Below are positions 35,356-63,098 of a stretch of DNA of 63,098 bases, one piece after another. Numbering within the stretch: position 1 is the stretch's first letter; the number at the start of each line of letters is the position of its first letter. Below the pieces are notes generated by a model. That model was not told the DNA's origin. It made no database searches and worked only from the letters and a program-made list of their open reading frames with translations. Both the position numbers and the translations under genes were made by a program. Origin of the DNA: Folioceros fuciformis (lineage: Eukaryota); NCBI GenBank assembly GCA_049999805.1, contig JBNGIO010005370.1, forward strand, positions 1-63,098, written 5' to 3'.

Positions 35356-38300
35356 TTAAACTGAAACTTCCTTTGCTAGGACCTGGCTTCCGTCGCGCCT
35401 GCTACCCTTGGGCCCGGCTCTTGAATCATGATACAACGAGCTTTCGAGCTCGGATCTGATACCCTGAAGCAATCTATAAATCCTTGATTCTTGTTGGTGC
35501 CTGAAATCTCCGACCAGAAAATTGTGCACTTTCTGCTTGTGTTGCATCCAGGACTGGCCTGGATCTTTGCTTGCCCCTGCGGCCAGTTTCAAATTCTGTA
35601 TCTCTTCCACACAGTCCCGCATACCCGCATTGGCGTAGATATTGGTCATCATCGCATACGCCGCGCCATGTCTTGGTTCTAAGCACACAGCATTGTCGAA
35701 GGCTCGCCGCCCTAATGCCAAGTTGCCGTATTTTTGGCACGCCCCCAACAAGGACAGCCAGACAGGCAAGTCTGGTTCCACCGACATTTCTGAAAGCAAC
35801 TCTTCCGCCTTGATAAAAAGCCCGGCACGGCCAACAAGATCCACCACACAGGCGTAGTGCGCGAGTTGTGGATGGATTCCATACTCTCTGGTCATGGTTT
35901 CGAAGTAGTCCAACCCCTCAGCCACTGATCCAGCATGACTGCAAGCAGTGAGGAGTGCTAGAAACGTGACACTGTCTGGCTTCTCTCCTGAAAGGCACAT
36001 GGCATCAAAGCATCGTATGCTCATCTGACAATCTCCTTCTCGGGCATAGCCAGCTATAAGAGCAGTCCACGAGACAGTATCAGGCTGATGTAATGAATCA
36101 AAGACGACCTGCGCATCTGCCATGCTTCCACATTTACCATAGGCGTGGATGAGGCTGTTCGCAAGGGTGAGGCTACGCATCCCGGTACTGTCGACAATTT
36201 TTTGGTGGACTTGCCAACAGTTGTCCAGGGCTCCTGTGTTGCCACAGGCCTCCAGGACAGCGATATAAGTGGGCTCATGAGGGATAATGCCTTCTGCTTG
36301 CATCTGTGCGTACAGTTGCAGAGCTTTGTCTCCTTGGTCCTGCTGGGCATATCCTGCAATCATCGCAGTCCATGACACAACATCACGCTGCGGAGATTGG
36401 GCAAACATGTGTTCCGCATCTCTGATACTCCCACACTTTGCATACGTGCTAACCAATGCACTCCCAAGGAACAACGTCAGTGGAAACCCCCGTCTAGAAG
36501 CTCCAGCATGCAGTTCTTTCACTAGTTTCAGAGACTCAACCTTCACTATTTGCCCCTCCACATTTGTGCTCTTCTCCTCTGCTGCAATGCTGCCACATGC
36601 TTGGAGAGCACTGACAAAGGTTTGACCATCTGGAGGCACACCTTCCTGTTGCATTTCCTCATACATTTGCAACGCCATGTGGCCTCGCTCATGCTGGGCA
36701 TAGGACGCGATTATTGCTGTCCATGACACAACATCACGCTGGGACAAACCATGGAAGACCTTTTGTGCATCTGTGAGGCTCCCACACTTCGCATAAACGC
36801 TAACTAAAGTGCTCGCAATGAACACATCTGCACCTAGTCCCCAGAAAGTAGCTCTGGCATGTATTTCCTTTCCCTTTTGGAGGGACTGCAGTTTGATGTG
36901 TTGTCCATTCACGAGTGCAGGATCCTCCTCCTCTGCAAGCGTGCCACATGCTTGAAGGGTAGCAACACAGGTCCGTCCATCTGGTGTCATACCCTCCATT
37001 CCCATTTGCCGCAGCATCTGCAAGGCTTTTGTCCCTTCCCCTTGTTGAGCATAGAATGCGAGTACAGTGTTCCATGATACAATATCGCGCTGAGACAACC
37101 CATCAAAAACTTGCTGCATGTCTATACTGCTCCCACACCTGCCATACATGCTAAGCAATGCGTTCCCAACAAAAAAGTCTGTCCCAACACCTCTCTGAGT
37201 AGCCGCGGCATGAATCTCCTTCCCCTTCCTTAATGACTGAATCTTGACAATACTCCCATCCATGGATACACCTATCTCCTTTTCTGCAAGCATTCCACAT
37301 GCCTGAAGAGCACTAACGAAAACTCGCTGATTCGGTCTGATCCCTGCTTCCTGCATCTGCTCATACATCTGTAAAGCCATCACTCCTTGGTTTTGCTGTG
37401 CATATGCTGCGGCCATGGCAGCCCACAACACTGCATCTCGCTGTGTCAATCCATTGAAGACCTGTTGTGCATCCACAAGGCTCCCACTCTTTGCGTACAT
37501 GCTAACCAGACTGCTACCAACAAAGAGATCTGAATCAAATCTTCTCACAGCGGCTGCAGCATGCAATGCCTTTCCCTGTTGCAACAACCGCATTTTAACC
37601 TTCTGCCCGTTGACAACTGCGAGGTCATCATCCTCAGAAATTGCACCACAAGCTTGAAGAACACTGACAAAGGTCCGTGCATCTGGACTTACTCCCTCAT
37701 GTTGCATTCGACAATAGATTTGCAAAGCATTATCTCCTTGGCCCTGTTGAGCATACGCTGCAAGAATTGCGTTCCATGAGACTACATTACGCTCGGACAA
37801 TCTGTCGAAAGTCAGTTGTGCATCCGCAATGCTCCCACACTTGGCATACATACTAACTAGGGAGCTTCCCACAAAAACGTCTGTTTCTAGCCCATATTCC
37901 ACAGCCTCTGAATGAATGCGCTTGCCCGCTTGCAGATCTTGTAATCTGCCGCATGCCTTGAGTAGGGCAACAAAGGTATGATTGTCAGGGCGGATACCTT
38001 CCTGAAGCATCTGCTCATACCCTACAAGTGCCTCCCGGCATTTACCAGCTTTGACATGCCCTGCTAGGACGGCTGTCCACGAGAAAACAGTCCGCTGTGA
38101 CAACCTCTGGAACACTTCCAGCCCATCCTCTAGGCCTCCACAATTCACCAACGTTATCACCACAAGATCCAAAAGTCTGTTAGATTCCAGCCCACAATTT
38201 TCCAGATGAGAATGTACCACTTTGGCCTCTGCAAGGGCCCTCTTCCTTGCGCAGGCCTGCAACAGGTGTCTGTAAACGTGCACCGAAGCCACACTACCCT

Positions 38301-38445
38301 GTTCATCCATGCGCTGCAAGGCAAGCAGTGCCCTTTCCAGTTTCCCTTCCTTGCATAAACTTTCGATGTGCCATGATGGGTCAATTTCTCCAGAGGTAAC
38401 CCGCCACCTGGAAAACCCAAGATGCCAGGTTACAAACAGACTCAC
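35356..38445 (-). CDS. PLS-class PPR protein with E/E+ region and no DYW; probable organellar RNA-editing specificity factor
   Basis: Repeated P-L-S motifs (LVSMYAKCGS...DVVSWTAMIAGYAQ), then HYACVVDLVGRAG and KDPGQSW. 5' end uncertain (acceptor-like TTTTCCAG near 38408). Confidence 0.95.
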   Translation of the reverse strand: MSLFVTWHLGFSRWRVTSGEIDPSWHIESLCKEGKLERALLALQRMDEQGSVASVHVYRHLLQACARKRALAEAKVVHSHLENCGLESNRLLDLVVITLVNCGGLEDGLEVFQRLSQRTVFSWTAVLAGHVKAGKCREALVGYEQMLQEGIRPDNHTFVALLKACGRLQDLQAGKRIHSEAVEYGLETDVFVGSSLVSMYAKCGSIADAQLTFDRLSERNVVSWNAILAAYAQQGQGDNALQIYCRMQHEGVSPDARTFVSVLQACGAISEDDDLAVVNGQKVKMRLLQQGKALHAAAAVRRFDSDLFVGSSLVSMYAKSGSLVDAQQVFNGLTQRDAVLWAAMAAAYAQQNQGVMALQMYEQMQEAGIRPNQRVFVSALQACGMLAEKEIGVSMDGSIVKIQSLRKGKEIHAAATQRGVGTDFFVGNALLSMYGRCGSSIDMQQVFDGLSQRDIVSWNTVLAFYAQQGEGTKALQMLRQMGMEGMTPDGRTCVATLQACGTLAEEEDPALVNGQHIKLQSLQKGKEIHARATFWGLGADVFIASTLVSVYAKCGSLTDAQKVFHGLSQRDVVSWTAIIASYAQHERGHMALQMYEEMQQEGVPPDGQTFVSALQACGSIAAEEKSTNVEGQIVKVESLKLVKELHAGASRRGFPLTLFLGSALVSTYAKCGSIRDAEHMFAQSPQRDVVSWTAMIAGYAQQDQGDKALQLYAQMQAEGIIPHEPTYIAVLEACGNTGALDNCWQVHQKIVDSTGMRSLTLANSLIHAYGKCGSMADAQVVFDSLHQPDTVSWTALIAGYAREGDCQMSIRCFDAMCLSGEKPDSVTFLALLTACSHAGSVAEGLDYFETMTREYGIHPQLAHYACVVDLVGRAGLFIKAEELLSEMSVEPDLPVWLSLLGACQKYGNLALGRRAFDNAVCLEPRHGAAYAMMTNIYANAGMRDCVEEIQNLKLAAGASKDPGQSWMQHKQKVHNFLVGDFRHQQESRIYRLLQGIRSELESSLYHDSRAGPKGSRRDGSQVLAKEVSV

Positions 38446-38985
38446 ATTTTTACTACCATTTCCTATGATCTGTCAGATACTAAGATGAATTAAGCAGAGA
38501 ACGCCCACCTTCCTCCATAGATCCGCAGGGACAGTGATACACACGGCATCGTCAACCCAAAGCCCCACCCCTGCAGCTGCCCGTGTCCAGCATGGTCACC
38601 TCACACTCCGTGCCCACTCATCGCTCGTCTGCCTTGCAGAAGGCAGCATTCCAGGCTTGGCCAACCAGGGCCCCCACTTCTCTTCTGCACGTGTGGATAC
38701 CATGACAACGGTAGTCACTGGAAAACGTGCGGGCAGCACCTGTCCTTTCAAGCGGAGACATGGGCTGCGGCATGTCTTGTGGAAAGATCTCGCAAGGCCA
38801 GCTCATGGCTGGGGACAACGCTACAGAAATGGCATTTGGACAAACGAGCCTAGCAAATGCACGCTTCAATGAAATACTGATCATACATCACCTGGTCCGC
38901 AAAGCCTAAGTACAATCAGTCGGCGCATCCGACTGCGAAGTCCACAAAGTGATAGGCTATACACGCCATCCACAAGGCTATTATC

Positions 38986-41900
38986 TTACAAAGGACAAGC
39001 GACTTGGGGCCGCAGACTGTCTGCTAAACTTGAAAACCTCTTCGCTAGCTGAATTTCATCCACGCTGATGTAGTGCTTTCCCGTGCCCGCATCTGCCATC
39101 TTCTGCAAAGTTGCCACGTACTTTTGCTTACCGAAGAGGATGGTGTGGAAGATGAGACTGGGGTTGCTGTCCTTCATTTTCTTCACCATGGGGATCGGAT
39201 CTGTGCCCTTTTCATTCTTACCGTCACTAAGGAAGATGACAACAGGGGGCTTGTCTTTCATGTCGGCTCGCTGTGAAGCTCGCTGCAGAATCTTCTCAAC
39301 CTTTTCCAGGCAGAGCGAGTAGTTGGTTCCCCAAGGCAAGGTGTATTGACAGAGACCGGCCGCCAACGCGCGCACGTCTGATATGGGCTGCCCCTCGAGT
39401 ACGATGTCGGCCTTGCCGGAGAAGACGACAACGGACAAGAAATCTGATTGACCTGCCGCAACGCGGGTACGGATGAAGCGGATAACGGCTTCGTAGACGC
39501 ATCCCAGCCGATTGTCGAGGGACCTTGTCTGCCAATTTAGCGTTGGTCTCATGTCCCTCTCGAACATAGAGCCTGACTTGTCGATGGCGAACACCACGTG
39601 GCTTGGAGTATCTTTCACGTGAGTGCAACGGAAGACATGGCCGTCCTTCGTCACATGCGCTGCTGTTGCACTCGATTGTGTCGTGCTGACAGGTTGGTGC
39701 CACAACCTCTCAATGCAGTAGGATCGATTTTGCGGTGTGTGTTCTTCCGAAGGGCAGTAGTGTCCGCACATCTCGAACTGCTTCTGATCTTCTTCTTGGC
39801 AGGGGTCCTTGAACTTGAAGTACTTCCAATAAGCTGCGTGTGTCATTTCATCTTTGGGGACGGTCGTGTCAGGCCCATATTCTCTGGTCTGATGCCTTGC
39901 TCCTTCACAAATTCCTTCCTTGCATGCCTTGGACAGATCCGTTCGGTACTCCATCTCTCTCTCATCCGAGTCAGATCGCGAGAGCTCCTTCCTGCCATGG
40001 GCAATCCCAGGACATGTGACGAGGTGGATGTGGCCGCGGCCTCGGTTTCTGCAATGCATCATGCACATCTCGGCCACGCAAGATTCTCCCCACGCATATT
40101 TCCTGTCCCCTAAGTCGATTTCTTCTGAGTCTGCCACAAAACGTACGTCTCTCATGTTTCCATGTGTGGTCTCATGTAAGCCTGGATGCCCAAGGGGAAG
40201 ATGGCAGATGTATGCACAAACTGGACATCTTGTGGGGCAAAGGTGTACTGCTGCGGGATTGAGGGTGTGGCAGTGCTTGCCATCGTGTTTGTCCTTCCAG
40301 GGTGGAATCGGGATACAGCATGGTTTCCTGATCCCACCCTGCTCAGAAACATGGTCGTAGACAAATTGAGATCGCTTTCCCCAAAAGACCTGGGGCTTCT
40401 TGACCACCTCTGTCACGATCTCGCAGATTCCATCAGCCTCACAGTTCATCGGGCAAGTGTGTTGGTCACCGCAAAAATGGCTCGCATAGTAAAGAGAATG
40501 AAAGTGATCCTCGATTCCACACTTTCTGTTGCATCCGTCCATGATGCACGTCATGGGACACATCTTTTCGTGACATTCATGGTCATGGTGTTCTCCACAG
40601 TCAACAGCGATAGTACAGGGGTTGCTACACTCCGGTAGAGAACACTTCTTTGCACACACGTGCTGCCTGGTATTGCACCTGTGGTCTCCTTCATGTCCAG
40701 GCCTCTTTGCACAATGCTGGTTGCAGTTGGATGAGTTCAGAAGAGCACACATGTTCGAACATGTGTGGTTCCTCAGCTTACAGTCATGTGGACCGTCATG
40801 TCCCGAGCGATCGCTACACTCATGACACTGCAAGCCCTTTGATTGCTCTTCAAGGCAAAACGTACAAACCGCCGAGCAGTTATGCGTCCCCCTGCAAGTA
40901 TGCTTGTCTGAATGATTTTTTTCAATACTGCATCTCAGGAAACAGGTCTCGCACTTGCTTATACAGAGGGACAGGCTCTGCTTCACTTCCGCCAGGGTGG
41001 CAATGGCTTCCAAACGAAGCTTCTGAACATCAACATATGCATCCAGCTCCTGGAACTCTTCTGTGTTGCACCTGAGCCACTCCAGAATTCTGTTCCTCCG
41101 CCTATCAGCCAATGCCATGAGAAATTTCTCGAAGGAAGTGTGCCAACGCTCATCATCCATACCAGTCCGCTTCTCCACACATTGAAAACGGTCATTTAGG
41201 GCTTCAACAATGTCACTTATCACTTGTGTCTCCTCCGAAGGGTACAGTTCCAAGCCAGTATCAACGACATGGAACATAACACCATCAACCTCTACAGGCA
41301 TATCAGCAACTTCCTTCTGAGTTGCGAAGTCTGTCAGGACATGGCTGGCTCCCTGGCCCATAAGCTTTCCCAAGGAGATGGCCGATCGCATGTGTCGCTT
41401 CAGGAGCTCCACTTTTAGAGTCAAGCGCTTGGAGTCAATTGGAGACCAATCCTTGGTAGCTATCTGAGCCATCACCAGCTTCAGGTCTACTGCAAAGCTG
41501 CTGCCATTGCAGTGGACCGCTTTCAGTTCCTCCTTGACGAGTGTAGCTATAGAGGCAACACTTTCGTAATACTCCAACTTTTGGAAAGGTGACATCGTTG
41601 CTATCACAACATTCCCGCCGTACATCTTTGTAAGAAAATTGTCCACAGATTCTTTACAAATGCCGGATACCTTGTCTGTGAACGCTAATGTCAACGCATC
41701 GACATCTACACCATTCACGTCTTTGATAGCCAGGTAAAAGAGGCCTTTGAAGAGCCGGCTGTCCTCCTTCACCAAGCTTACGCCATTCTGAAAGCGCTTG
41801 AAGACAACTTCTGTGTCTTTGTCCAGAGAAAAGTCCTGCCCAGATCATGTAGTTAGCCTCACCCATATAATGCCTGTTGTACCACTCATGACCCAAATGC

Positions 41901-44900
41901 ACAAGGTAGGATTGGAGGTCGTACCTTTTTATTGAATATAGTGATGTTGCTCACGGCCGCATTTAGAAGAGAGAGGAGCATATCCTCCTGCTCGCTTCTC
42001 TCAAAGCTTCCCAATCCCTCAAAGTCCAGAAGAACATACAAGCAGCTCTTGGATTCACGTATAGTCATCCACGCTCCGTCTGTGCATCTGCCTCCAGACA
42101 CGTCGAGTAGCGAACCAGCCAAGTGGTTAAGCAGGTACGACTTCCCACTGCTCTGCTTACCCATGGACGATATCACTTTGAGATTCCCAGACCAGTGGGC
42201 TAACACGGACTCGTAAAAACCAAATCGCAGGGCCTCAGCTAGCTCCACTGCATTTCCATACATGAGATTGGGATTTTGCAGCCCGTCTACTAAAGGCCGC
42301 AAGCTGTTGTTCTCGGCTCGCGCTAGTTGAATGGGAACAAGGCAAACAAGGCGTCGAGTCCAATCCCCTAGTTTGGCTCTGTTTCTACCTCCTGTGCTCT
42401 CCAGAAGAGCATTATCGACGATGTAGCTGTCCACATTGCCCGATGAAAGATGTACCGTCAGATGCGAGAGATCTTTCCCATTTTCCGCTGCCAGCCTGCG
42501 TATGGAATCGTTGACGTACTTCACAGACTCACGCTTCAAAGCCTCCAGTTTCTCCCTGGATTCTCCAGCGAAAAGCAGATGAAGATGGAGTTCTTTTATC
42601 TCTTCGATCAGAGGGGGGTTCGTAGCATACTTCTCATATATGTGATAAATATATTCCAAAGCCGGACAGCCATGGCCAACCGTGTCGTTGCGTGCAGAGG
42701 AAATGCGAGCGCTGTCCATAAGTTGCAGCTGGCAGGCTTCAGAAGCGGATGTGATGTCCAAAACCTTGGAGCATATTCCTCTCTCCGGCCTTGAAACATC
42801 CAGAAGTACGAGATGGACCTGACTTCCGAAGGCCACTACTGTTGCATCAATGCTCACTACGTCTGCTACTGCGTAGTCAAGGCTGAGTGTCTTCAGATGC
42901 CTTATTGACTCGCCAAGTAGGTAGACCTCAACCTTCAAAATACCTTCAGCATACTTTTCCATCTCAAGCTGGGTACCAGTCTGGCCCCTATCTCGCGCCA
43001 ACCCGTCTAGATCTGTTGCTGGGTCAGGTCCGCCTGGAAGAAACTTGTAGAAGGCCATCAAACAAGATCCATCTGTGGAAACACAAATCTTATGGGCAGG
43101 ACCAGGTAACTGCATGTCCCCTGCTTTCTGCATGGCAGTGCTCATTTCGAACACCCGAACTCTGAATTCTTCGTCAACTAGCACCATTTCTCTCCTCCCA
43201 GGGATGAACGACAATGACTTCAGGACACCGATTCCACAGTGCTCGCGGAGCTCCAAGGTAACTCCAGAACACTCCAACACGCGGAAGGATTCGTCCTGAA
43301 AGATGAGGATCTCGATTTTGGCCAATTCCCTATCATACAAGCCAACGAGTTTTGCAGTTTCATCCACTGCCACAAGGTCGTAACCCCTCTTGAAGGTCTT
43401 GACGGGAGGCACGGCTCGCATATCTACACCCAATGAAGAGAGCACAAAAAGATGAAGAGCTACCCCTTCACGGTCCTCCATGAACACTAAAAGCGGACCT
43501 GATTTTACGGCAACTACCTGAGACAGCATCTCCGATTCCATATCCACCTCAATCAACCCAAGGTTCTCTGAACACCTGGGATTGATGACGAGTCCGGAGT
43601 CAGACATGAGATGTTGCAAATCCTCTTGCATTGGTGTAAACTCCGCGACCTCCCACGAGATCCGCTGACTCTCTGTCTTCTCAAACTCGTACTGAAGAAC
43701 CAGCTGTTTGGCACGGTTTTCAGCTTGTGAGGTGACGCCTAGAATGAAGTTTCGTGCTTGGTTATACTTGCCTTGTTCCTTCCAAAAGCACCTTGAAACG
43801 GACAGACGATGTTCTTGATGTGTCCCACTGGACAGCTGCTTTTGCACAAACTGCCGTACTTCCCTTTCCTGGCGGCGCTCCAAGATCTTCGTGACATGTT
43901 TACGTCTTACTTCAAACTCAATCTTCTTCTTCAACAAGGGGGCCACCTCTTCGCTAACCATTTTCTTGAGTCGGCTGGAAAATTCTTCAAGGGCTTGTTT
44001 ATAAGCCTCTCGCACCAGATCCAGCATCCATTTCCTTTCCTCAGGAGCAATCTTGTCCAAGGGGAGATCTCCGCTGGAAAACTCTGACCTTACGCTGTTG
44101 GTCACTCCCTTTGTCTTCAGCAACTCCTGAAGAGCTCGTTTTGAAAATTGATCCTGGAATTGGCTCTTCTTGTCACCCCGAGACACCGCAATCTTGTATG
44201 CAACTTCTAAAATTCGAGAACGGATGCCACATGCATCTGATTCATTGAAGACCTCAGGAGTTGCAAGTGCCCAGGCCAGAGCATCGATCGAGGCCTGGAA
44301 AGGGCGCACAATAGGCCTGCCATATTGCTCCATCCATGTCAGCATTCCGTTCACTGATGTTTCGTCTGTAACAAGCTGACCTTTCCAGTCCTGTGGATTT
44401 TGAGTGGAGGCATTGCCGTACTGGATGGTGACGCCAATAAGTCGACACGTTAGAATTGGGCCTTCGCAGAAATCCTCGCTGGGAGCCTTGCATATCAGCC
44501 TAATATGACTTTTGGGCGTGGCCAGAAACCCTTCTCCATCACCTTTGGGCGTGGCCACAAATTCTTCCCCATAAAGAATAGGGCCTGCCGATAATCCTTC
44601 AGACCGCAGTGGTGAGGAAATCCTATCCACGATGAACTTTGCAGTGCCACTGTACGGTTTCCACGCGCTGTTCGTGTCTTTCTCTATCATTTGGAATTCT
44701 GTACCAACAAAAATGAAAGATCCACATTTCTTTCTTGCTTGAAGCTGGCCAACATCGCCTGTCCAGATATCAACCAGGGCAGCTTCTGCCTGAAGCAGAT
44801 CATTCGGTTGGAACACACTGTGCACGGGTGACGACGCAACACCGGAAGGGGAAACCCCAGAAGTTGTTAACAGCCCCTGGAGCCATGGATGGTACCGATC

Positions 44901-46094
44901 TAAGTACGCCTTTGAGGCATCTCCGCTTAAAATTCTCAGAACGGTCTGTTGTTCGCCTTGCATGAGATCTTCTATTGCGGAAGACTTTCCCCTTTGAACA
45001 CAATGATTCTTCCTGTCTTCCTGGGACTTCCTCAGCGAGCGAAACCCTGTGCTCCATTCAAAACCAGCATGCTCCAAAAACAGACAAAGTTCTTGGTAAG
45101 GTAGCTGCGTGAAGTCAAGATGAAAGGAGCCACACCAGCCCTGCACAAGATTGGCTAAGAGTTGACTGTCCACTGTCTCCTTGTCCTGTGTCAGAGTTGT
45201 CTTAGCAGGGACCACTGACGAAGAAAGCAAAACGCAACGGTGAAGACCGCCAGCCAGTCTGCAACTAGTCTCCAAGCGGGAAGATGTGCCCACATTGCCT
45301 AGCGTCTTCGAATCCCTTGAGACTCTTGAGAGGAATGTAGGACACTCGCGAAAACCCTCCCGCAGCTTCACATCGTTCTCTGCCTGCTTGATCTTAGATA
45401 TCTGGAGCCTCTGCGTACGCTGCTTTCTGGGAGCGGCACTGGTAGAGCGTGCCGAGGTCATGAGAGACAAATCCACATCATTTTCATCGTCCAGGCAGAT
45501 GTAGACAGTGGCACACAAGTCCGCCACATACCGAATGAAGTTGCAAGACACATGCTTCCGGGAGGCCTTCACCATTCGCGCGCCCTCATGCCAATACACA
45601 ATGAACAACACTCCCTGATGAAGAAAGGCATAGATCCCTACATCACGAGAGTTCGACATCGAGGACACAACACCATGAAGCCCAAGCTTCGCGAAAATTT
45701 GAGCGATGACCTTCTTGCTTCCATACAGTCCCACAACGTGGGCAGACTCACTGTTCAACGCGTTGAAGTCCAGCAGCGTCGTCCCATCGCGACATGCCGC
45801 TGACTTGAGCCTGACCTCATTGCAAAATCTTTCAATCTCATCAGGAGGTATGATAACCTTCTCCACGAAGCCGTATCCCTGCTTGTCCAGCCTCAGGTGC
45901 ATGAGCGTGTGCAAAGTTGGCCCCTCGATCGAATCTCTTGCACTTGCATTACTTCTGGCATATGCATCAGGAGACACCTCTGGAACCTCGTGCGCGACAT
46001 GGATCCGACGGACGGAAATAAGGCCGTCTTGTGCGATTGGAGGGAATGCGACTGCCGTGTCGCAGTCCTCTTTTTCCGGATTCTTAGATCCCAT
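38986..46094 (-). CDS. Giant protein (~2,339 aa): long N-terminal region, GBP/atlastin-like GTPase, Cys/His-rich repeats, C-terminal VWA
   Basis: Exon 1 46094-41925 and exon 2 41835-38986, joined by an 89-nt phase-0 GT-AG intron. G1 MGKQSSGKSYLLN, G2 RCTDG, G3 LLDFEGL; many C/H motifs; MIDAS DKSGS and VIFLSDG. Confidence 0.9.
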
Positions 46095-47856
46095 GATGGT
46101 TTCCAGCTAAACCTGCGCTCTCCTGCAACCAAGTTGCCTCCTATTAGTTACCTGGAGAGTGACTGACATTCATGAAATACACTTCAAATTTGCATTTGCA
46201 CGTCGCACAACTGAGCTACCGTCATCTCCAACCCGCACCAAGCGTTCAATCGACAGCTACCTTACAAGCTTGAAGACTACCGCCTCTCCACCCGCTACTT
46301 GCAACTCGAGAAATGCCTATCACTACAACAAGGATACGCCGGTGTCTTGGGACTGGCACGAAATTGTTACAGCACGCACAAGCTGGTATTTTCGGACACG
46401 CACAACATAAGAGCACGAAGCAATGTTCTCAATCATAAGACAACTGTGTGGACTCTCACAAGACAGCAGGTGAGTTCCTCTCGAGGAGGAACTCTCCGCT
46501 GCTCTCCCCGGCAGGCGAAGACCTCGACGAAGATGCTCTATCCGGCCAGAGCGCGCGGTATAATATAGGAACTTGGGAGAAGGATTTGTGAAATTCCTAG
46601 CTCGGGATCACACACCACGCTTCTTCTTACACAACTAAGGGTCGGGTGGAGGCACAGGCACACAATCAAGGAGCGTGTGCTTGCCTTTTGTTCCACCAAG
46701 CACATATGTTCCTAAGGTAACTTGGCAACTTAGAACACTCCTTACTCCATGGGCTCGTTGGGTCCGTCATGAACTCTGTGCTCCCTTTTTCGTTCTTTAG
46801 AACAAACAGCCTAAATCCGATGAAACAATCGCTGTGGTCCGCCTGTCAATCAGTGGGTGCAATCACATACTTGACGTGCGACGGGGCATTAGATTTATTT
46901 AATCCGTTGTTGACTGGGCCGTGCACCTGCCTAGGCCATGCCTTGCACAACTTGGCAAAGCAAATTGCTAGCTGGAAGGAAGCGTCAAGTCTACGAACCC
47001 ACCTGCGAGCTCCTCGCTTCAAGAACAAGATTCTGGACTGCTGCAGGCTTGTGCAGTCATTATAAACAAGACAGATGCATGTACCTTCCTCCCAGCACGC
47101 GTGCACGACTTGCGTTTGGCTAGGGATCCATTGGCTGTAGCACTGAAGTCAGATCACCAGTTGTGGATTGGATTGGATTGGATGGGATTGAGGCAAGCCA
47201 GGGGTAAGCCCCGTGGGATGTCAAAAGCTAAATGAGAAGAGCTGGAAGAGGGCTGGAAGAAAATCACGGTTGATTGGAGAATCGCCGACCGGCCCCAGCA
47301 AGTGAAGAGAGTGAAGAACTTCTCCCTCACGAGCGGCGCACAGTGCGGTCCGGGTACCCCATGTGTGGCACGTATCCTGGACATACAAGGGAGTTGACTC
47401 TGTCACTTGGCCAGCCATTGACTTGGAAGGATTCCTCCCAATTGTTTTCTCAAAGTTTTTGAATTCGGTATTATCTGGTCAATGAGTAAAGTCCGGTACT
47501 CTCGGACTCGATTGCCAAGTGGGGTCAGGACTGGAGCCAAACGCTAGCGGAAGCACGATTTTACAGAGTCCGTCTACCACGGCTCTTTCATCTTACATCG
47601 TGACCAAGTTGATCGAGATGAAGATTCACTCACTTTGTGCTTCATTTTGCGTGCTCCTGCTCCTGTGCTAGTACATGTGCACCGAATTGGAAGCCATACC
47701 GGCATACAGGTGCTGGATGCTTTGATATTCATCTTGCTCGACATGAGCACCTCTGTGGCTTCGGTGCACATTTAGGAGGACGTGTTTCTTTACAAGAGCT
47801 ACCTCGGTCTTCTCGCATCCTTCAATGCTTTGGCCAAAAGGCGAGAGGGTCCACAC

Positions 47857-50117
47857 TCATGGTGCAAGAATCTTGCCTTTTGAGTCAATTGGAGACCAAT
47901 CCTTGGCCGTGATCTGAGATATAACCAGCTTCAGGTCTACTGCAAAGCTGTTTCCATGATGATGGACCGATTCCAATTCCTCCACAGTTGCAGCTAACTC
48001 AGCAACGCTGTTGTGGTATTCCGACCTTTGGAAGGGCGGCATTGCTGCGATCTCAACCGCCCCGCCGTACATCTTTGTGAGGAAGTTGTCTTGCGACTTG
48101 TGACATATTTGCTGGATCTTCGCTGAGAACTCGTCTTTCAAGTCATCCACGTCCGATGCATCCACGTCTTTGATGGCCATATAGAAGAGGCCCTTGAAGA
48201 GCCGACTATCCAGCTTTACCAAGCTCACGCCATTTTGAAACCGCTCAAAGATAGCTTCTGTTTCCTTATCGAGGTGAAAATCCTGTCCACATCATGCATG
48301 TAGACGAATCCTGTCATCATCATGCATCATCACGTCCGTGAGTTAAGGTACCACTCATGATCAATACCGGCCGAACACACACGGTCAAATTAGACGTCTT
48401 ACCTTTTTGCTGAATAAGCTGATGTTGCTCACGGCTGCATTCAGAATGGAGAGGAGCATGTCCTCCTGCTCGCTTCTCTCGAAGCTTCCCAGGCCCTCGA
48501 AGTCCAGAAGAGTGTACAGACAGATTTCGGATGGACACATTGTCATCCACACCCCGTCTGTGCATCTTCCTCCAGCGTCATCGAACAACGAACTAGCCAA
48601 ATGGTTAGCAGATAGGAATTGCCACAGCTCTGCTTGCCCATGGACGATATCATCTTGATATCCCGGGGCTAATGAGATAACGCGGAGTCGTAGAATCCAA
48701 ATTGTAGCCCCTCAGCAAGCCCCACTGCATAATTCAGGTTCGGATTTTGCAGACCGTCCTCCAAAGGCCGCAAGGTATTGTTTCCAGCGCCCGCTATTTG
48801 AATGGGCACAAGGCAAACCAGTTGCCGCACCCAATCCCCAAGGTTGGCACGGTTCCTGTCTTCGGTGCTCTGCATAAGAAAGTTATGGAGTACGTCGCTG
48901 TCGACTGTGCCTGCGGAAACAGCTAACCTTAGCTGCGAGAAATCTTTTCCTTTATCTCGTACCAGCTTGTCCATGGAAGCTTTCACGTAACTCGCAGAGC
49001 TGTCCTTCAAAGCCTCCACTTTTCCCTTGCATTTGCCAGCGAAAGCTAGATGAAGATGGAGATACCTGGTGTTTTGGATCAGAAGAGGACTCGTAGCATT
49101 TTTCTCAAACATCCGGTAAACATAGTCCGACGCCGGACGGCCATGGCCACTTTTTCCAGTGTTTGCGGGAGACATACCACTCTGCTGACCTCTGTACATG
49201 TGTTGCAACTGGCACACCTCGGAGGCCGAAGTGATCTCAATGACGTTTGACCATCTTCCTCTGTCCGGCCTGGAAGAATCCAGAAGCACGAGATGGACCT
49301 GTGATCCGAAGGCCACCACTTTCGCATCAACGCTGCTTACATCAGCTACTGCATAGTCAAGGAGGAGCGTCTTGAGATGACAAAGATTCGCCAAGCAAGT
49401 AGACCTCAACCTTTAGAGAACCTTCAGCACACTCCTCCACTTCAGGCTCTGCATCTTCCGTGTGGCCACTGTTTTCCATGATCACTTCTGCTGGCTCCGT
49501 AGGTTCGTCGGGAAGTACCTTGTAGAAAACCATCAGACAAGAACCATCTGTAGAGACACAAATCTTATGCGCAGGACCAGGTAACTGGATATACCCTGGT
49601 CTCAGCATCCCAGGTTGGCGGATCTCGAAGACCCGGACTTTGAACTCTTCATCGACTAAAACCATTTCTTTCCTGCCAGGGACAATGCACATTGAAGTCA
49701 AGGGTCTAATTCCGCAGTATTCGGACAGATGCAGGGTAACCCCAGACCACTCCAACTGGCGGAAGGATTCATCAAAGCGGAGAATTTCAATTTTGTTCAT
49801 TTTCCTGTCATACAAGCCAACAAATTTCGAAACTTCGTCCACAGCCACAAGGTCGTGACCCCTTTTGAATGTCTTTGCCGGATTCATGCCTTGTATCTCG
49901 ACACCCAACCTCAACAGCGCGTAGAGGTGAACTGCTGGACGTTCAAGATCCTCCACAAACACTGAAACTTCACCCCATTTCACAGCAACTACTAGAAACA
50001 GCCTCTCCGCGTTCGGGTCGACCTCAATCAACTTGTGCTTTTCAGAGCACTTTGGATGATGAGGTGCCCGGAGTCGCACATGCAAGCGTCCAAGTCCTTC
50101 TTCATCGGTGCAAGCTC
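47857..50117 (-). pseudogene. Frameshifted paralog of the giant GTPase gene (central part)
   Basis: Collinear with ~41430-43650 and has the same intron after FSKK. Degraded P-loop, frameshifts near 49380 and 48670. Confidence 0.9.
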
Positions 50118-51516
50118 ACTATATATGGGAATAAGATGATGGCTAGGAAAACAAAAGGAGAAGAAGTGATAAAAAAGGATTCATCAGAAAAGTGATAAAA
50201 AAGGAATCATCAAAGTGTGAGTTCAAGTGTGCTTATAAAGATGTCACGGTGAAGGCGTGCGTCCCTTCCCCTATCTACTCCTTAATAACTAAGATGATAA
50301 TTATGTATATTCTAATACTCCCCCTCATACTAGATATGTGGGATAGATACAGCATCCGGTCTTGGGGAAGGGTCTTGGGAAAGGACAAAGTCCTAGTAGG
50401 GAAACACAAGCTAAATGCTTATCACCTGGTAGGCTCTTAGTAAGAATGTCGGCAGCCATCTCCTTCATTGGACAATACTCCAGTCTTATCTCCCCTACTG
50501 CAGACTTCTTGCGCATGTAGTGGTATTGGAGATCCATGTGCTTGGGCCTGGAGTTGAACTTGGGGTTGCTTGTAAGAGCCAGAGCATATTGGTTCTCGAT
50601 CTTGATGACGTTCGGCTTTTGCCACTTAATCCCTAATTCATCAAGAAGCCGAACATTGTCTGCAACACGCTTGGTGGCGAGAGTAGCAGCCATGTACTCC
50701 GACTCAGTTGAGGAGAGGGCAACAGCTTCTACCTCTTGGATCCCAATCAATAGCCATGCCACAGAGCATTAAAGCAAAGCCTAATGTTGATTTCTTTGAG
50801 TCTATGTCTCCCCCACTCAACATCAATGTAAGCGAAGAGCTGAGGAGGGGAATAATAACCCTGGAACAGAAGTCCATGGTATGCTTAAGAGCCAACCAAT
50901 GTGCGGGACTTGGGTTGGCCATCTGTTGTGCAAGCACGCGGATAGAGTTGCCAAGGTCTGGTCGCAAGGTAGTACATATCCAATTGATCTGTCCAGTGGC
51001 TTCTTGGTAAGGCATAGTCACCATGTACTTGCACTCTTCGTCGGTTGTGCAAGCCTAGTTAGAAGACAAAGAAGAGCCCATGGCGAGCGGAGTGGATGCA
51101 AGCTTGCAGTCTTGCATACTAAAACGAACTAGGGTATTCTTAATATACTGGGTTTGGGTAAGATGTAACCATGTATGTGCATAATCATGGCCTTCATCTC
51201 AATAGAATAATGAATATCCCCTAAATCGGCCATCTTAAACTTGGACTTGAGGACAAAGATGGTCTTGGCAAGGAAACCTGCCTTGTGGTTGCTAGCAAGA
51301 ATGCAATCATCCACGTATAAGGCAAGAGTAACAAGTGCTGGCCTGGACCGAAGGATATAAACGTTACTATCGGAGGGACACTTGGTGAAGCCGAGCTGAA
51401 GGAGGGTCTCATCCATAAGAGAATTGCAGTTCTTGGCTGATTGCTTAAGTCTGTAGATGTTGCCTAAGAGCATGCAGACCTAATGCTCATGGCCTTTTTC
51501 TTCGTAGCCTTCAGAC

Positions 51517-54500
51517 TGTGTAGAGGAAAAAAACTTTCGACACTCCCATTTTGAGTGACAGAATGAGCAGGCTGCGATTTTTTTGTGTGAAGGAACGAGC
51601 AAATCGGCTTAGTATGTGAATAAGATGGGGGTATTCATACCAAAAAATGGCCTTGGTCTTTGGGTGTTTGGGATACCGAAGACCACGATTTGGAAGTGAG
51701 TGAGTGAGTGAGGGTGTCCTTGGGCCTTGGTGGTTCGGGGGCATTTAGGAGGTTGTATATACCCCCCCCTTTTTTGCAAATAAGGAATAGAAATGAGTAG
51801 GGAAGGGGGCTAGCTAGTTGTGGATTTAGGAAAAAGAATGGGTTGAGGTGACTAGGCGATGGTGGCCAGTGGGGCAACCGTCGCAAAAAGGACGACTGGT
51901 GGTAGTCTAACTGGCAGTAGTGAGAGAAGAAAATGGCCAGTATAAAAACCCTAAAGGGAAGTCTAGAGGGGAATTAAGTTAGTCTTCGAAACGTGAAGGG
52001 CAGTCACCCGGGAGCGTAAAAGCAACTGGAAGGGAAGCAGACGCTGAGGCAACAGGACGGGCCGAGGCAAGTAGTGAGTGCTCAGCGAGAGCGAGGAGGG
52101 ACCGCAGAAGCCGGAGCACGAGGAGGAGATTAGCAGGACGAGGTCACGTCCTGAACTGCTACCTGGAATACCCGAGCAGGAGGGGGAACCTCCTGTTCCC
52201 TGGATCGACCTACTCTTGTGGCCCAACATGGAGCACTGGAGGGTTAGAGCAAGAGGGCTGGTGGATGAATTGGGTCTGGGTTTCATGACCCAGAAGTGGA
52301 ACCACGCAGCGCCACAGTTGGTCAGGGAGTGCACCCTGAGGTTGAGGGAACCTGTCCATGAGAAGGGGATCAGAGGCAGACCGCAAGGGTGGAACCTGGA
52401 GCTAGTGAGGAGGGTGTATGGCCGTGACCAGCGAGAAGAGGGAGGATTGGTGCTGGAGTCCCTCAGGAAATGGGGGGGGGTACTGGAGACGCTGAAGTAT
52501 TGCTCAAACCAGGCACGAAGGAGGAGGCTAACGGATGGTTGGTTCACGACATGGCGAGCCCGCAGCTGATGGGTTTGGCCAGGTGGTTTCTTAGTTTTCT
52601 CCAGGTTCGCAAACAGGATTATTTGTCTGACCATATGCCCTTGTTTGTGCATGAGGTAGTGAAGAGGACTAGGATTGATTGAGGAAAAATTTTGTATGCT
52701 AGGATGGACGAGGAGAGGCAGAATTTGACCCTGCCCTCTCCTCAGCCTTTGATGATTTCCCCGTTTCTAGTGCATATTTATAGTTATGCTAACCTGGTGT
52801 CGGAACTGGAGGTGTTGGCTTCACTGCATAAGTGGAGGCCAATCAGGGATGTAAAATGGAAGCCTGCTGAGCCAGTGAAGGCTGACTCCAACAGTTGGGT
52901 GTTGGGGAGTGGGGACAGCTCGAAGGGGGAGGTTCTCGTCAGGCCTAAGAAGAGGACAGCAGCTCAGGGAAAGACCCTTGCCAAGAGGAGATGGGTTAGC
53001 GGGCAGTGCACAAGAGGAGGGAGTAGGCCGGAGACACCGGAGATAGCCCTGGAGCGAACCGAAGGTCAGACAGAGGAGCAGGCTGTACAAGAACAAGAGG
53101 TAGAACATGGCTCGCTAATCAGGGGGTTATGGATCAAGGACTGGAAGAGCAGGGGCAGGATGAAGCAGGGCTGGGGGGGTCTCAGGAGCAGACGTTAGCC
53201 GCCGAGTTAATTCCTCCCAGGCATGAGAGCGAATTAGGGCACGTTTTGGCGCAAGGAATTTTTTTCAAGTTGGGAGGAAATCTTCAGGAGGAGACGTTCA
53301 GGAGATAGGCTGTAGGTGGGAGACCTGGAGAAGCTGAGGGAGTTTCTGGGCAAGCAGATTACGGCGAGGGGAATGACTGCTGGAAAAACGTAGGAGGTGG
53401 ATCTGCCAGGGCTGACTACCGCAATGGTACATGCCCAAGCAGATCTCCTGGACCAGGCTGCTAGGGAAATGACTTGGCTGAGTGTGCAGGCAGAATGGGA
53501 AGCCGAGGCCCGAGGGAAGGAAGCAGAGGCATGCCAGAAGGAGGCTGAAGCCCGGAGGCTATTGGCAGAATTGAAGGCGGCGCGGCAACAGCTGGAGGAG
53601 AGACAGCGAGTCCTGGATAAAGAGAGGGCACAGGCTGAGGAAGAGGTACGCCAGGCGAAGGCCGAGGTCCAAGCGGTGAGGGAGCAACAGGGGATCCTAC
53701 TAGCTCAGGTGAGGGAGGCCTATGAGACTAACCTGGAGATAAAGCAGGAGATGGCCAAGGCGCAAGAGCTAGAAATAACAGCCGTGGAATAGGCCCAGAA
53801 GCTGGCTGATAGGTACAAGCGGAAGCGAGACGAAGTCAGAGAGAGTGAAGGGGAAGGGTAAGGTTGGGCGCCCAAGTCAAACGGCGACCTCGGTAGCTGA
53901 AGAGGCTACCGGTAGTCGAGCAGGGGAACCAGTAATCGAGCGAACTACCGGTAGCCGAGTAGTCGCCAAGGCTACCGGTAGCCCAGTTGAGCCCAGAGTA
54001 GCCGAGGGACCAGCCCTGGGAACCAAGGAAGAAACAGCGAAGGCGCCTGAGCTTAGGCCCTCCAGGAGATTAATCCACACCAGAAGGATAGAGCTGGAGG
54101 AAGCAACAGCTGGACGGGTGACGGACCTTCAGGTACTCCAGAAAGATGGGGAACAGACAGCCCACGGTAGCCCAAGGGAGGAAGGGGTAAGCACCTCCTT
54201 TATGACAGAAGGTCGGGTTGTGCTGCAGTATGAGGAGGAGGCTTCCTATGTGCCAGGTCTTTATGTGGAAGGGGCCAGAGTTCTTAAACTGTTTCTGTAT
54301 GTACGTATGGGCACAGGAGGGACGCGGGGCTACGGCCTGCATCTGAGGACCCGCAAGGGACTCTACCGCTACAGCTAGTGGATGACAGGCTTGCCCCATT
54401 GCTACGCGAAGGCAGTTCTGGAGGAGTTGACGGAAGAAGAGGCCCAACGATGGGTAGAACGGGAGCCTATTGCCATCCTCAATAACCAGAGGAGGAGGGG

Positions 54501-61959: not shown

Positions 61960-62660
61960 AACTCCCATCGGCCTTTAACATACGAAAATGTTTGCCAACA
62001 AAAATAAAGGAGCAGATCATTCCGTTCGATTGCAATCTGGACGTGTGAGGAGGCTTCTCCAGAAGGGTCAACCTCAGAGGTCGAAACAAGAGTCTCAGCC
62101 CATGGGTAGTGCAGCTTCAAGTACGCCTTCTGAGCTGCGCTCAAAATGCTCAGAATCTTCTGCTCTCCCTCCTGCACGAGCTCTTTCACATTGTCAAACC
62201 GTTCCTTCTGAGGCTTCCTTCGTACTTCGAAGGTCTCCTTGAGCGCGCGATCCCTTCAAGACCAGCATGCTCTAGAAACAGGCAGAACTCATGGTCAGGG
62301 AGTTCAGTGAAGTCAAGATCAGCGCAGGTAGACCATTCCTCAACCTGCTTTGCCAAGTTTTCAATGTCCAGAGTCTTTTGCAGCCGATCAACACCTTCTT
62401 GGGAGGGACAACTGAGGAAGTTAGAACAACGCAACGGTGAACTCCGCCTGCAAGTCTGACACTACACCCCAAGCAGGAAGATGCCTCAACATTGCCTGGC
62501 TCCATCTCTGTGACTACCGTAGAAATGTGAAAGCCTTTCCGCACCCGCACCCGCACCCGCCACATTGTTCTCCGACTGCCTTACCTTGGCTATCTGGAGC
62601 CTCCGTGTAAGAGTGCAGTAGTAGAGTGCTCCGTAGTCGTGATAGACAAATCCATACCGG
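61960..62660 (-). pseudogene. 5' fragment of the decayed giant-GTPase paralog
   Basis: RLAGGVHRCVVLTSSVVP, LDFTELPDHEFCLFLEHAG and AYLKLHYPW match ~44830-45500 of the intact gene. Confidence 0.85.
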
Positions 62661-62699
62661 ATGGCGGAGAATGGCGGAGAATCCCTTTGGATTTGCATA

Positions 62700-63098
62700 A
62701 GTCCTGGAAAGCATGACTTGTGTACTCTCCTCTCTTGTCATTGCGGAGTGTGCTGACCTGGAAACCAGTTTGCCTTTCTACTGCTAGGACAAATTCTTGG
62801 AAACATGTGAGTGCTTCGTCCTTGTGCCTAAGGAAAAAGATATGGCAGTACCTGCTCTACTCATCCAAGAATGTCAAGAAGTAGCTATGGCCACCGAAAC
62901 TGGAGGTGCTCATTGGTCCGCAAATATCTGAGTGTACGACCTCAAGGAGACATTGGGCTCAAGTAGGTGAGGGGTCGTTGAATGGGAGTTGATAGAACTT
63001 TGAGTACTTGCATATCTCGCAGAAGAAGTCCTTGGGTACCTTAATGCTAACAAGATCCTTATACATGTTCGGGTTGACAAATGTGCTGAGGTACGAGG
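62700..63098 (-). mobile_element. Copia integrase fragment running off the window
   Basis: Minus strand [42 protein letters not shown]. Confidence 0.8.

Follow-up and report, generated by a model that had tools for sequence, protein, structure and literature searches.

What kind of gene is the long, nearly intron-free coding region on the minus strand of this window (the whole stretch of 63,098 nucleotides that was analysed), and what might its product do? Two long minus-strand open reading frames, 41886..46106 and 38986..41844, are linked by a coding intron and together give a coding sequence of 2,339 amino acids (46094..41925 + 41835..38986) with no internal stops. All features given below by their window coordinates lie on this strand. 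Coding exon 1 (41925..46094, from ORF and sequence) carries residues 1-1390 and starts with the ATG at 46094, upstream of which an in-frame TAG (46109-46107) is found within the same exon; coding exon 2 (38986..41835, from sequence and transcript) carries residues 1391-2339 and the stop. The coding intron between them (41836..41924) is 89 nt long, has GT..AG ends, is in phase 0 and is the only one in about 7 kb of gene. It is visible in the sequence and is exactly the segment omitted by a 3,326-nt transcript contig, and the transcript extends past the stop to 38822 as 3'UTR. A second contig joint, from 46260/46261 to 46122 with a short side of 45 letters, delimits a 5'UTR intron of 138 nt (46123..46260; GT at 46260-46259, AG at 46124-46123) and the portion of a non-coding 5' exon that the contig covers (46261..46304). 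The sequencing run concerned (run X1) was labelled 'RNA?' only by guess, and is taken to be spliced RNA because of these two GT-AG joints. Its contigs match without a single mismatch and cover 27 of 30 bins; the bins that lack a contig (38400-38676, 44217-44493 and 46433-46700) are gaps that carry no meaning. The locus is a real, expressed plant gene with two coding exons and at least one non-coding 5' exon. The original prediction of a two-exon gene of about 2,339 residues holds for the coding part, as the ORFs and spliced contigs agree, and its caveat that the gene might be silent is answered by the same contigs.

Among the neighbours, which the original prediction called intron-rich, the adjoining PPR gene is one ORF of 1,038 amino acids, and two F-box genes in the window are single ORFs of 425-450 amino acids. 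The window also contains two decayed relatives of the large gene. A tandem partial paralogue (47878..50120), identified by tblastn and ORF translations, corresponds to residues 817-1526 at about 60% identity; its matches fall in several frames, the P-loop is lost, and a frame break occurs at the position of the 89-nt intron, so that it is classed as a pseudogene. A further paralogous fragment (61967..62703) matches residues 192-473 in three frames at 34-46% identity.

The N-terminal half of the protein is dominated by a predicted beta-propeller. It is preceded by an alpha/beta domain at residues 57-215 (45450..45926; pLDDT about 80-89) that is conserved across eukaryotes, with 15-42% identity to 19 homologues, and whose only near-invariant columns, in alignments of 36-54 rows, are G125, G153 and Y155. 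This domain had no credible Pfam match at E<=10, S1CSD-TOTE-2 at E 0.17 being noise, as was CTLH (E 0.052), another weak match in the N-terminal half; structure searches over the region gave match lists filled by the propeller. Bacterial 2OG-oxygenase-like clusters found in the ESM Atlas for residues 55-335 (0.84-0.86, 69-82 features in common) were weak leads and were dropped because the near-invariant columns are only Gly and Tyr, with no conserved His or Asp. The first part of the propeller occupies residues 225-330 (45105..45422), with strands at 230-309 in the model, and the main part residues 796-1130 (42705..43709); VIA-align propeller matches span model residues ~240-1120. Between the two parts is a variable insert at residues 331-795 (43710..45104), modelled as helices, a small beta region and long helices at 578-755. 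According to the model, the fold is a propeller interrupted by this helical insert, and the helical or coiled segment and the beta-rich region that had been read from the sequence can both be seen in the AlphaFold model. The insert is the least conserved part of the protein, with 10-25% identity to homologues and 20-73% of it alignable; in eight Cryptomeria paralogues its mean identity is 0.41, as against 0.74 for the G domain and 0.67 for the Cys/His array. Such variability may reflect weak constraint, which would speak against a recognition role for the insert. Helical regions delimited by model and alignment lie on either side of the G domain, at residues 1131-1295 (42210..42704) and, as a middle domain with pLDDT mostly >90, at 1531-1680 (40966..41415). 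No 19-residue stretch exceeds a Kyte-Doolittle value of 1.62, the maximum lying within a propeller strand; there is therefore no predicted transmembrane segment, and the protein is, by its sequence, a soluble multidomain predicted GTPase.

The G domain, placed by Pfam, profile and motifs at residues 1296-1530 (41416..42209, a range that includes the 89-nt intron), has all of its motifs intact: G1 GKQSSGKS (1312-1319), G2 T1338, G3 DFEG (1357-1360) and G4 IKDV (1427-1430). The first three had been recognized previously as being of the GBP/atlastin type; the G4 element is an addition. An alignment of 20 sequences from 19 taxa shows G1 to G3 conserved, except in one Riccia model, which is without two P-loop residues, and in Stylonychia, which has DCEG. 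G4 is an adjacent basic-Asp pair, K-D or R-D, wherever the aligned sequences have residues at this position; the Selaginella model is gapped here. The URGCP_GTPase model (PF25683) was the top G-domain match in all four family proteins scanned, with 37.5 bits for the window exon-1 product, 31.5 for P0176, 43.1 for P0020 and 39.7 for P0043, yet all of these fall below the 55-bit cut-off and the match covers only profile positions ~187-296 of 396. RHD3_GTPase (PF05879) scored 24.4-29.0 bits in the same four proteins (26 in the window product), below its cut-off of 42.4 in each case, with a match that begins at profile position 1. The Pfam GBP N-terminal domain was borderline, at 21.2-24.9 bits (21.3 in the window product) against a cut-off of 21.1, and the GBP C-terminal helical domain was absent from the Pfam results for the four proteins. 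A family profile searched against the PDB matched GBP2 (7e58_A, E 4e-9), GBP5 (2.4e-8), GBP1/5 (~1e-6 to 2e-8) and Sey1 (5ca8_A, 1.7e-6). By these matches, the domain belongs to the GBP/RHD3/VLIG class. It would not be a typical GBPL or RHD3 protein, as the original prediction had also held, because RHD3 and URGCP remain below their cut-offs and neither a GBP helical domain nor a transmembrane segment was found.

The Cys/His-rich array at residues 1681-2130 (39616..40965) contains 48 Cys and 40 His, 19.6% of its residues, and has the repeat unit C-x3-C-x5-H-x3-H-x-C-x3/4-H-x-C-x3-C, whose H-x-C-x3-C core occurs five times. The motifs first quoted for it, CAKRPGHEGDHRC and CHLPLGHPGLH, are present in the protein. 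In 54 sequences, 69 of the 88 Cys/His positions stay Cys or His in at least 90%, and 31 of the 35 invariant columns are Cys or His. The array is modelled with pLDDT mostly >90 and sparse regular secondary structure. The window array had no match to any Pfam family at E<=10, and no zinc-finger family, zf-NF-X1 included, matched nine further family fragments at that threshold; with the single sequence no PDB relative was found at E<=10; an array profile searched against the PDB gave only noise (eS21, E 0.07; viral PA, E 1.6). From the 69 conserved columns and the confident but irregular model we infer that the array binds zinc. The protein ends in a VWA domain (residues 2131-2339, 38989..39615) with no RING or AAA+ after it. 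The MIDAS described earlier is complete (D2142-x-S2144-x-S2146, T2227, D2261), the Pfam VWA model scores above its cut-off, the modelled fold is the canonical, Rossmann-like one, and whole-model structure searches were filled by VWA matches. For exon 2, the ESM Atlas led to nothing beyond fungal VWA/GBP clusters named 'hypothetical protein', with values of 0.79-0.87.

Full-length homologues were found in bryophytes, a lycophyte, ferns, gymnosperms, streptophyte and red algae, fungi, oomycetes and amoebae, as well as in a malawimonad, a dinoflagellate, a ciliate, a sponge and an acoel. The suspected relatives in fungi and protists thus exist. The notion of a module of seed-free plants survives only in part: such plants carry the family, but it is not confined to them, being present in Ginkgo, Taxus and Cryptomeria. 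In word-indexed searches, none of the 60 matches listed (23+23+14) came from an angiosperm, and no characterised angiosperm orthologue emerged; the family appears to have been lost in angiosperms. The whole architecture, in the order N-terminal domain, interrupted beta-propeller, G domain, helical middle domain, Cys/His array and MIDAS-VWA, is conserved over a range that takes in red algae, amoebae, fungi and land plants. Additions occur at the C-terminus: the P. infestans homologue has a zf-RING_2 match after the VWA (29.1 bits, cut-off 27.3) and the Mesostigma homologue has AAA matches there (123.6 bits, three stretches). Homologues are 28-69% identical to the window protein over the G domain and 32-57% over the array. 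It should be noted that such strong conservation of the core, with fungi, amoebae or ciliates compared with plants, fits a conserved cellular partner and a housekeeping-like role at least as well as it fits the recognition of pathogens, and perhaps better. Copy number varies widely. Among the matches listed, Cryptomeria has at least 15 distinct clusters at 90% identity, of which 13 lie on a single chromosome-scale record, and Mesostigma has at least three distinct cluster representatives. For prokaryotic relatives, a single-protein scan of 185,579 species genomes, a weak test, matched 17 patterns and confirmed none. No description of the family was found in the full texts searched, nor in passages of PMC7159879 and PMC3417536; supplementary tables may list these genes. 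The locus tags of six homologues were found in no indexed paper. The family is old, widely scattered and uncharacterised across eukaryotes.

Trees were quick LG+G4 searches with SH-aLRT as the only support measure. In both, the 15 land-plant rows (15 of 15) formed one clade with SH-aLRT 100. Within it, the bryophyte and lycophyte rows branch at the base and the ferns are sister to the gymnosperms; the fungi form a separate clade of their own, and so do the oomycetes. The sampled streptophyte-algal copies fell in another clade that is not sister to land plants, and an AU test rejected a single streptophyte clade (p = 0.017), for a group picked after the tree had been seen. The single land-plant clade supports the view that the gene is ancient within land plants, having descended vertically from the embryophyte ancestor without recent transfer. 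Of the two origins initially offered, ancient or horizontally acquired, the former stands for land plants and a recent horizontal gain does not.

These features suggest a working model, to which we assign a probability of roughly 0.55: the protein would be a GTP-gated assembly scaffold acting in a surveillance or conflict setting, vertically inherited in land plants and apparently lost in angiosperms. The G domain would bind and hydrolyse GTP, and its GTP state would drive pairing or oligomerisation, by analogy with solved relatives. The beta-propeller and its fast-evolving insert may bind a target or ligand. The array could fold round many zinc ions, at up to ~17 four-ligand sites, as a rigid interaction platform. 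The MIDAS metal of the C-terminal VWA would capture an acidic residue of a partner and so recruit an output machine, whose nature may be hinted at by the fusions seen elsewhere: ubiquitylation for the oomycete RING, and remodelling for the three AAA+ modules of Mesostigma. Hints toward a conflict role are the Cryptomeria expansion among the matches listed, the tandem pseudogene of the window and the patchy taxon range. Surveillance or cell-autonomous defence is most likely the setting, rather than a core housekeeping task; an immune role is plausible in view of the VLIG-like G domain, the Cryptomeria copies, the tandem pseudogene and the variable N-terminal half.

Several other explanations must be weighed against the scaffold model. 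One is that the protein serves a conserved housekeeping or regulatory function, such as proteostasis or the dynamics of ribonucleoproteins or organelles, together with a conserved cellular partner and with no part in defence. This is possible but on balance improbable: it would fit the retention of the whole architecture and of the 69 Cys/His columns across eukaryotic supergroups, and is opposed by the apparent loss from angiosperms (0/60 among the matches listed), the patchy range elsewhere, the large swings in copy number in Cryptomeria and Mesostigma, and the decayed tandem copy. A bolder reading, which we regard as doubtful, makes the family the ancestral form of VLIG-type immune GTPases, dating from the last eukaryotic common ancestor. 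It would be a soluble, GTP-gated machine of innate surveillance, whose variable propeller senses non-self or damage and whose multi-zinc array, of a new kind, and MIDAS-VWA recruit ubiquitin or AAA+ effectors, inherited by land plants and lost in angiosperms.

A membrane-remodelling or membrane-fusing GTPase like RHD3, Sey1 or atlastin seems quite unlikely. The absence of any transmembrane-like stretch, the RHD3 scores below cut-off in all four proteins, and the three quarters of the protein made up of domains absent from those fusogens outweigh the Sey1 profile match, the RHD3_GTPase match and a P-loop that resembles that of RHD3/Sey1. More improbable still is a recent horizontal acquisition with a fungus, an oomycete or a protist as donor, an event that might explain the near-intronless structure with its one coding intron in 7 kb and the position of the sampled streptophyte-algal copies away from land plants. 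It is opposed by the well-supported land-plant clade with fungi and oomycetes outside it, by the higher identity of the array to other land plants (44-57%) than to non-plant sequences (32-45%), and by ordinary spliceosomal introns that are present in the genomic sequence of the window and spliced out of transcripts.

The scaffold model concerns a relative of known GTPases, 2,300 residues long, whose fixed architecture extends over most eukaryotic supergroups and which is yet apparently missing from flowering-plant models; the family presents a case of a deep eukaryotic gene apparently lost on the angiosperm stem. Its uncatalogued array of ~450 residues could define a new zinc-binding domain. 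Since mosses, liverworts, oomycetes and basidiomycetes carry the family, it offers a tractable entry to the function of very large GTPases. If the ancestral VLIG reading were true, an immune arm invisible in flowering-plant models would persist in bryophytes, ferns and conifers.

Cell-autonomous immunity relies centrally on large GBP-class GTPases in animals and, by way of the GBPLs, in Arabidopsis. The window protein shares the G-domain class of GBPs, plant GBPLs included, as seen in the GBP2 match. The G4 of GBPs and atlastins is of the RD type rather than NKxD, and the K/R-D dipeptide of the window protein is of this kind; a Ser in its P-loop takes the place of the P-loop arginine of GBP1. 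However, it is about four times longer than GBPs, has a propeller, a putative zinc array and a VWA in addition, and is without the GBP C-terminal helical domain. Its resemblance to VLIG/URGCP proteins (vertebrate GVINP1/URGCP) lies in the top G-domain model (4/4, 31.5-43.1 bits) and in being very large and apparently soluble, and a Riccia fluitans homologue is named 'VLIG-type G domain-containing protein' in one source; the profile match, however, is partial and below cut-off. VLIG/URGCP proteins are not known to have a Cys/His array or a VWA, and no mechanism is known for the VLIG branch. RHD3, Sey1 and atlastin are similar in the Sey1 match and in an RHD3_GTPase match that starts at the first profile position, but the window protein scores below cut-off and has neither a transmembrane segment nor the RHD3 stalk.

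For the array, the closest parallel is with NF-X1-type proteins (NFX1, ZNFX1), in that both have Cys/His knuckles in tandem, built round a repeated H-x-C-x3-C; the spacing after the core differs, and zf-NF-X1 was unmatched at E<=10. ZNFX1 has a zinc-finger array beside a P-loop NTPase, an arrangement that the window protein, with its array adjoining a P-loop NTPase, shares. Intracellular MIDAS-VWA domains serve as partner-binding modules in VWA-RING ligases and in AAA+-VWA pairs such as MoxR, midasin and Mg-chelatase. Although the upstream GTPase and putative zinc array of the family are without counterpart there, the window protein has the complete MIDAS and predicted VWA fold of these modules, and its family includes both combinations, VWA-RING in oomycetes and VWA followed by three AAA+ modules in Mesostigma.

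Two prominent long ORFs were identified on the minus strand of the window, at 41886..46106 and 38986..41844. Comparison of their translations placed a phase 0 GT..AG intron of 89 nt at 41924..41836, between ...IFNKK and DFSLDK..., and the spliced product of the two exons (46094..41925 and 41835..38986) was found by script to have 2,339 residues and no internal stops. The ATG lies at 46094, with an in-frame TAG upstream of it in the same exon. Transcription was checked by aligning the contigs of one public sequencing run (X1, labelled as RNA only as a guess) to positions 38400-46700. Nine pieces, all at least 99% alike and with 0 mismatches, covered 27 of 30 bins. One contig of 3,326 nt spans 38822 to 42236 and omits exactly the 89-nt intron, and another skips a 138-nt GT..AG intron (46260..46123) located 5' to the ATG. 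Because both spliceosomal joints are precise, the X1 contigs derive from spliced transcripts. The GTPase gene is therefore real and expressed, with at least one non-coding exon 5' to its two coding exons. The giant GTPase gene with a Cys/His array and a VWA domain that had been proposed is confirmed.

The neighbors of this gene had been described as intron-rich, a description not borne out by those checked. Directly downstream, at 35356-38472 (-), a single ORF encodes a PPR protein of 1,038 aa with a C-terminal E motif; the presence of this gene identifies the window as land-plant nuclear DNA. Two F-box genes, at 2360-3712 (+) and 4571-5848 (-), are likewise single long ORFs, one with hints of a KIB1-4-like propeller and the other with Kelch hints. 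Two neighboring ORFs are transferrin-like (14963-15829 and 18043-19038, both on the plus strand; Pfam Transferrin 65.9 and 64.1 bits), a tandem pair that would be unusual in a land plant. An alpha/beta-hydrolase ORF was found at 30043-31287 (+).

Pfam models matched the window protein only at the two ends of its C-terminal half. Within the G domain, the half that holds the P-loop was matched weakly (URGCP_GTPase 37.5, RHD3_GTPase 26 and GBP 21.3 bits), and the C-terminus matched VWA_2 and VWA above the cut-off; even with the threshold at E<=10, neither the initial 1,300 residues nor the Cys/His region gave a credible match. Modeling of the exon-2 product in AlphaFold from an alignment of 54 sequences (mean pLDDT 87.9) predicts the remainder of the G domain, then a middle domain of helices, the Cys/His array and a terminal classical VWA domain. 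For residues 1-1196 (36 sequences, mean pLDDT 72.0), the model has an alpha/beta domain at about 57-215 followed by a beta-propeller. The first strands of this propeller are predicted at about 230-310 and the remainder at about 797-1125; the 460-residue insert between them is modeled as helices, the long ones lying at 578-755, plus a small beta region. The protein has neither a transmembrane-like stretch nor a membrane anchor.

The Cys/His array (residues 1681-2130) contains 48 Cys and 40 His residues (19.6%). It is placed with confidence in the exon-2 model, with little secondary structure. In the 54-sequence alignment, 69 of these 88 positions keep a C or H in 90% or more of the sequences, and C or H accounts for 31 of the 35 invariant columns of that alignment. 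The repeat unit, C-x3-C-x5-H-x3-H-x-C-x3/4-H-x-C-x3-C, occurs three times in tandem and then as variants; given four ligands per metal, there would be room for up to about 17 zinc sites. The H-x-C-x3-C core, present in 5 copies in the window protein, resembles that of NF-X1-type fingers. Membership in that class was rejected, since at E<=10 neither the window protein nor any of 9 other fragments from the family was matched by a Pfam zinc-finger model. Among PDB chains none matched the Cys/His region by sequence, and a profile search against them gave only noise.

The MIDAS of the VWA domain is complete (D2142-x-S2144-x-S2146, T2227, D2261), every column being at least 90% conserved. Some lineages have additions of their own after the VWA domain. 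A RING finger is found in the Phytophthora infestans homolog (29.1 bits, cut-off 27.3) and in the precomputed Pfam lists of three further oomycete matches, and in one Mesostigma viride protein (3,438 aa) the VWA domain is followed by three AAA+ modules and AAA-lid domains (AAA 123.6 bits over three stretches). MIDAS-VWA modules are classically paired with RING finger and AAA+ domains.

When the exon-2 product served as query in an exhaustive HMMER search, 1,131 cluster representatives were matched at E<=1e-3, and 297 of them reached E<=1e-30; among the 150 top-ranking representatives, many have lengths of 2,000-2,700 aa and align across the entire query. No recorded protein is identical, and the top match, from Ceratodon, reaches 51-54%. 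Three word-indexed searches listed 23, 23 and 14 named matches, with no angiosperm among them. The first comprised Cryptomeria (8), oomycetes (7), one each from Ginkgo, Selaginella, Ceratodon, Riccia and Taxus, and 3 unnamed; the second, Cryptomeria (11), Mycena (3), one each from Ceratodon, Calypogeia, Ginkgo, Selaginella, Riccia, Ceratopteris, Paxillus and Stylonychia, and 1 unnamed; the third, Taxus (3), one each from Ceratopteris, Adiantum, Riccia, Cryptomeria, Selaginella and Collybiopsis, and 5 unnamed. A look-up of 30 cluster representatives (10 without a taxon name, 2 with only a transcriptome-project identifier) added the red alga Galdieria, the amoebozoans Dracoamoeba, Soliformovum and Pelomyxa, the malawimonad Gefionella, the oomycete Lagenidium, the dinoflagellate Oxyrrhis, the streptophyte algae Mesostigma (3 proteins) and Coleochaete, the fungi Diversispora and Basidiobolus, and the animals Oscarella (a sponge) and Convolutriloba (an acoel, 2 proteins). 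By pairwise BLAST, the Calypogeia and Galdieria proteins are homologous from the N-terminal domain through the C-terminus, and Mesostigma homology was seen across the N-terminal 1,390 residues. The likeness to GTPase-VWA giants of fungi and protists noted in the original prediction is real; its suggestion of a module of seed-free plants is too narrow for a family far older and wider, present in gymnosperms, algae, fungi, protists and animals. Against 19 full-length homologs from 19 taxa, identity was 28-69% in the G domain, 32-57% in the Cys/His array, 17-50% in the VWA domain, 15-42% in the N-terminal domain and 10-25% in the propeller insert, of which 20-73% was alignable. No description of the family was found in full-text literature searches or in the retrieved passages of PMC7159879 and PMC3417536. 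The G-domain class and the VWA domain are already known; the architecture, the N-terminal domain and the predicted multi-zinc array are uncatalogued.

The exon-2 region was used for two quick maximum-likelihood tree searches under LG+G4 (38 and 37 rows, each about 905 columns), with SH-aLRT as the sole support measure. All 15 land-plant rows, among them that of the window, grouped as a single clade in both trees (support 100). The second tree joined ferns and gymnosperms as sisters (80), with the rows for the window and for moss, liverwort and lycophyte at the land-plant base in an unsettled branching order. Such a topology is what vertical inheritance from the embryophyte ancestor and a subsequent loss along the angiosperm stem would leave. 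Fungi and oomycetes formed separate clades (100 each), and recent horizontal transfer is disfavored by these groupings; of the two proposed origins, ancient or horizontally acquired, antiquity within land plants is the one retained. The Mesostigma and Coleochaete copies grouped with Soliformovum and Convolutriloba (96), and the land-plant clade lay nearer Galdieria and Dracoamoeba (88). Constraining all streptophytes to one group changed the log-likelihood by -71 units (AU p = 0.017, a generous value, the group having been picked after tree inspection). Two old paralogous lineages would fit this split, as would an old transfer predating land plants. A gap of 18 residues in the VWA domain (window residues about 2150-2170) is common to Mesostigma, Soliformovum and three oomycete sequences; the others read ...NRLG.V..A... 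there. The shared gap fits the two deep clades of the trees, leaving aside the oomycetes, whose deep placement is not resolved.

A tandem partial paralog lies just upstream of the GTPase gene at 50120..47878 (-), about 60% identical to residues 817-1526, with the match switching back and forth between frames. The P-loop of this copy is destroyed and replaced by unrelated residues, its frame breaks at the same spot as the GTPase-gene intron, and the match stops abruptly after ...DWSPIDSK with no Cys/His or VWA part beyond; from its sequence this copy is probably a pseudogene. A second fragment at 62703..61967 (-) matches residues 192-473 (34-46% identity, three frames) and may be what is left of the N-terminal part of that decayed copy, split off by inserted DNA. 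Between the two there seems to be a degraded copia-type element: retroelement remnants were found on the minus strand at 57084-57479 and 60315-60875 (Pfam SH3_retrovirus 87.5, Pol_BBD 55.5 and gag_pre-integrs 42.7 bits), and an RNase H/pol-like tail on that strand at 50325-51054 was recognized by eye, with no Pfam match. Inside this presumed retroelement region, positions 52001-56000 show strong strand asymmetry (GC skew 0.28-0.30, AT skew about 0.22, 2-kb windows).

Cryptomeria matches fell into 15 distinct 90%-identity clusters among those listed, 13 of which carry consecutive locus tags on a single chromosome-scale record. Among 8 Cryptomeria paralogs, divergence was greatest in the first part of the propeller and in the insert (mean identity 0.45 and 0.41) and smallest in the G domain and the Cys/His array (0.74 and 0.67). 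A variable N-terminal half on a constant half of GTPase, zinc array and VWA domain would be expected of a sensor-plus-effector protein, as would local duplication with decay and repeated lineage losses. The same features would also result from weak constraint and a dispensable cellular role. An immune role is a reasonable candidate function for the family.

In the alignment of the spliced window protein with the 19 homologs, G1 (GKQSSGKS, residues 1312-1319), G2 (RCTDG, T1338), G3 (DFEG, residues 1357-1360) and G4 (I-K-D-V, residues 1427-1430) are all conserved. The G4 motif of GBP/atlastin proteins is an adjacent basic-Asp pair, and that of the window protein is of this style rather than NKxD. 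Against solved structures, the family profile matched GBP2 (E 4e-9), GBP5, GBP1 and Sey1 (E 1.7e-6). On intact homologs the URGCP model was again the best of three G-domain models, with scores of 31.5-43.1 bits that lie under its cut-off of 55; RHD3 scores (24-29 bits) were under 42.4, and GBP scores (21.2-24.9 bits) were at the cut-off of 21.1. These motifs, profile matches and scores below or at cut-off place the G domain in the GB1/RHD3/VLIG class, on a separate branch of its own outside all three curated families.
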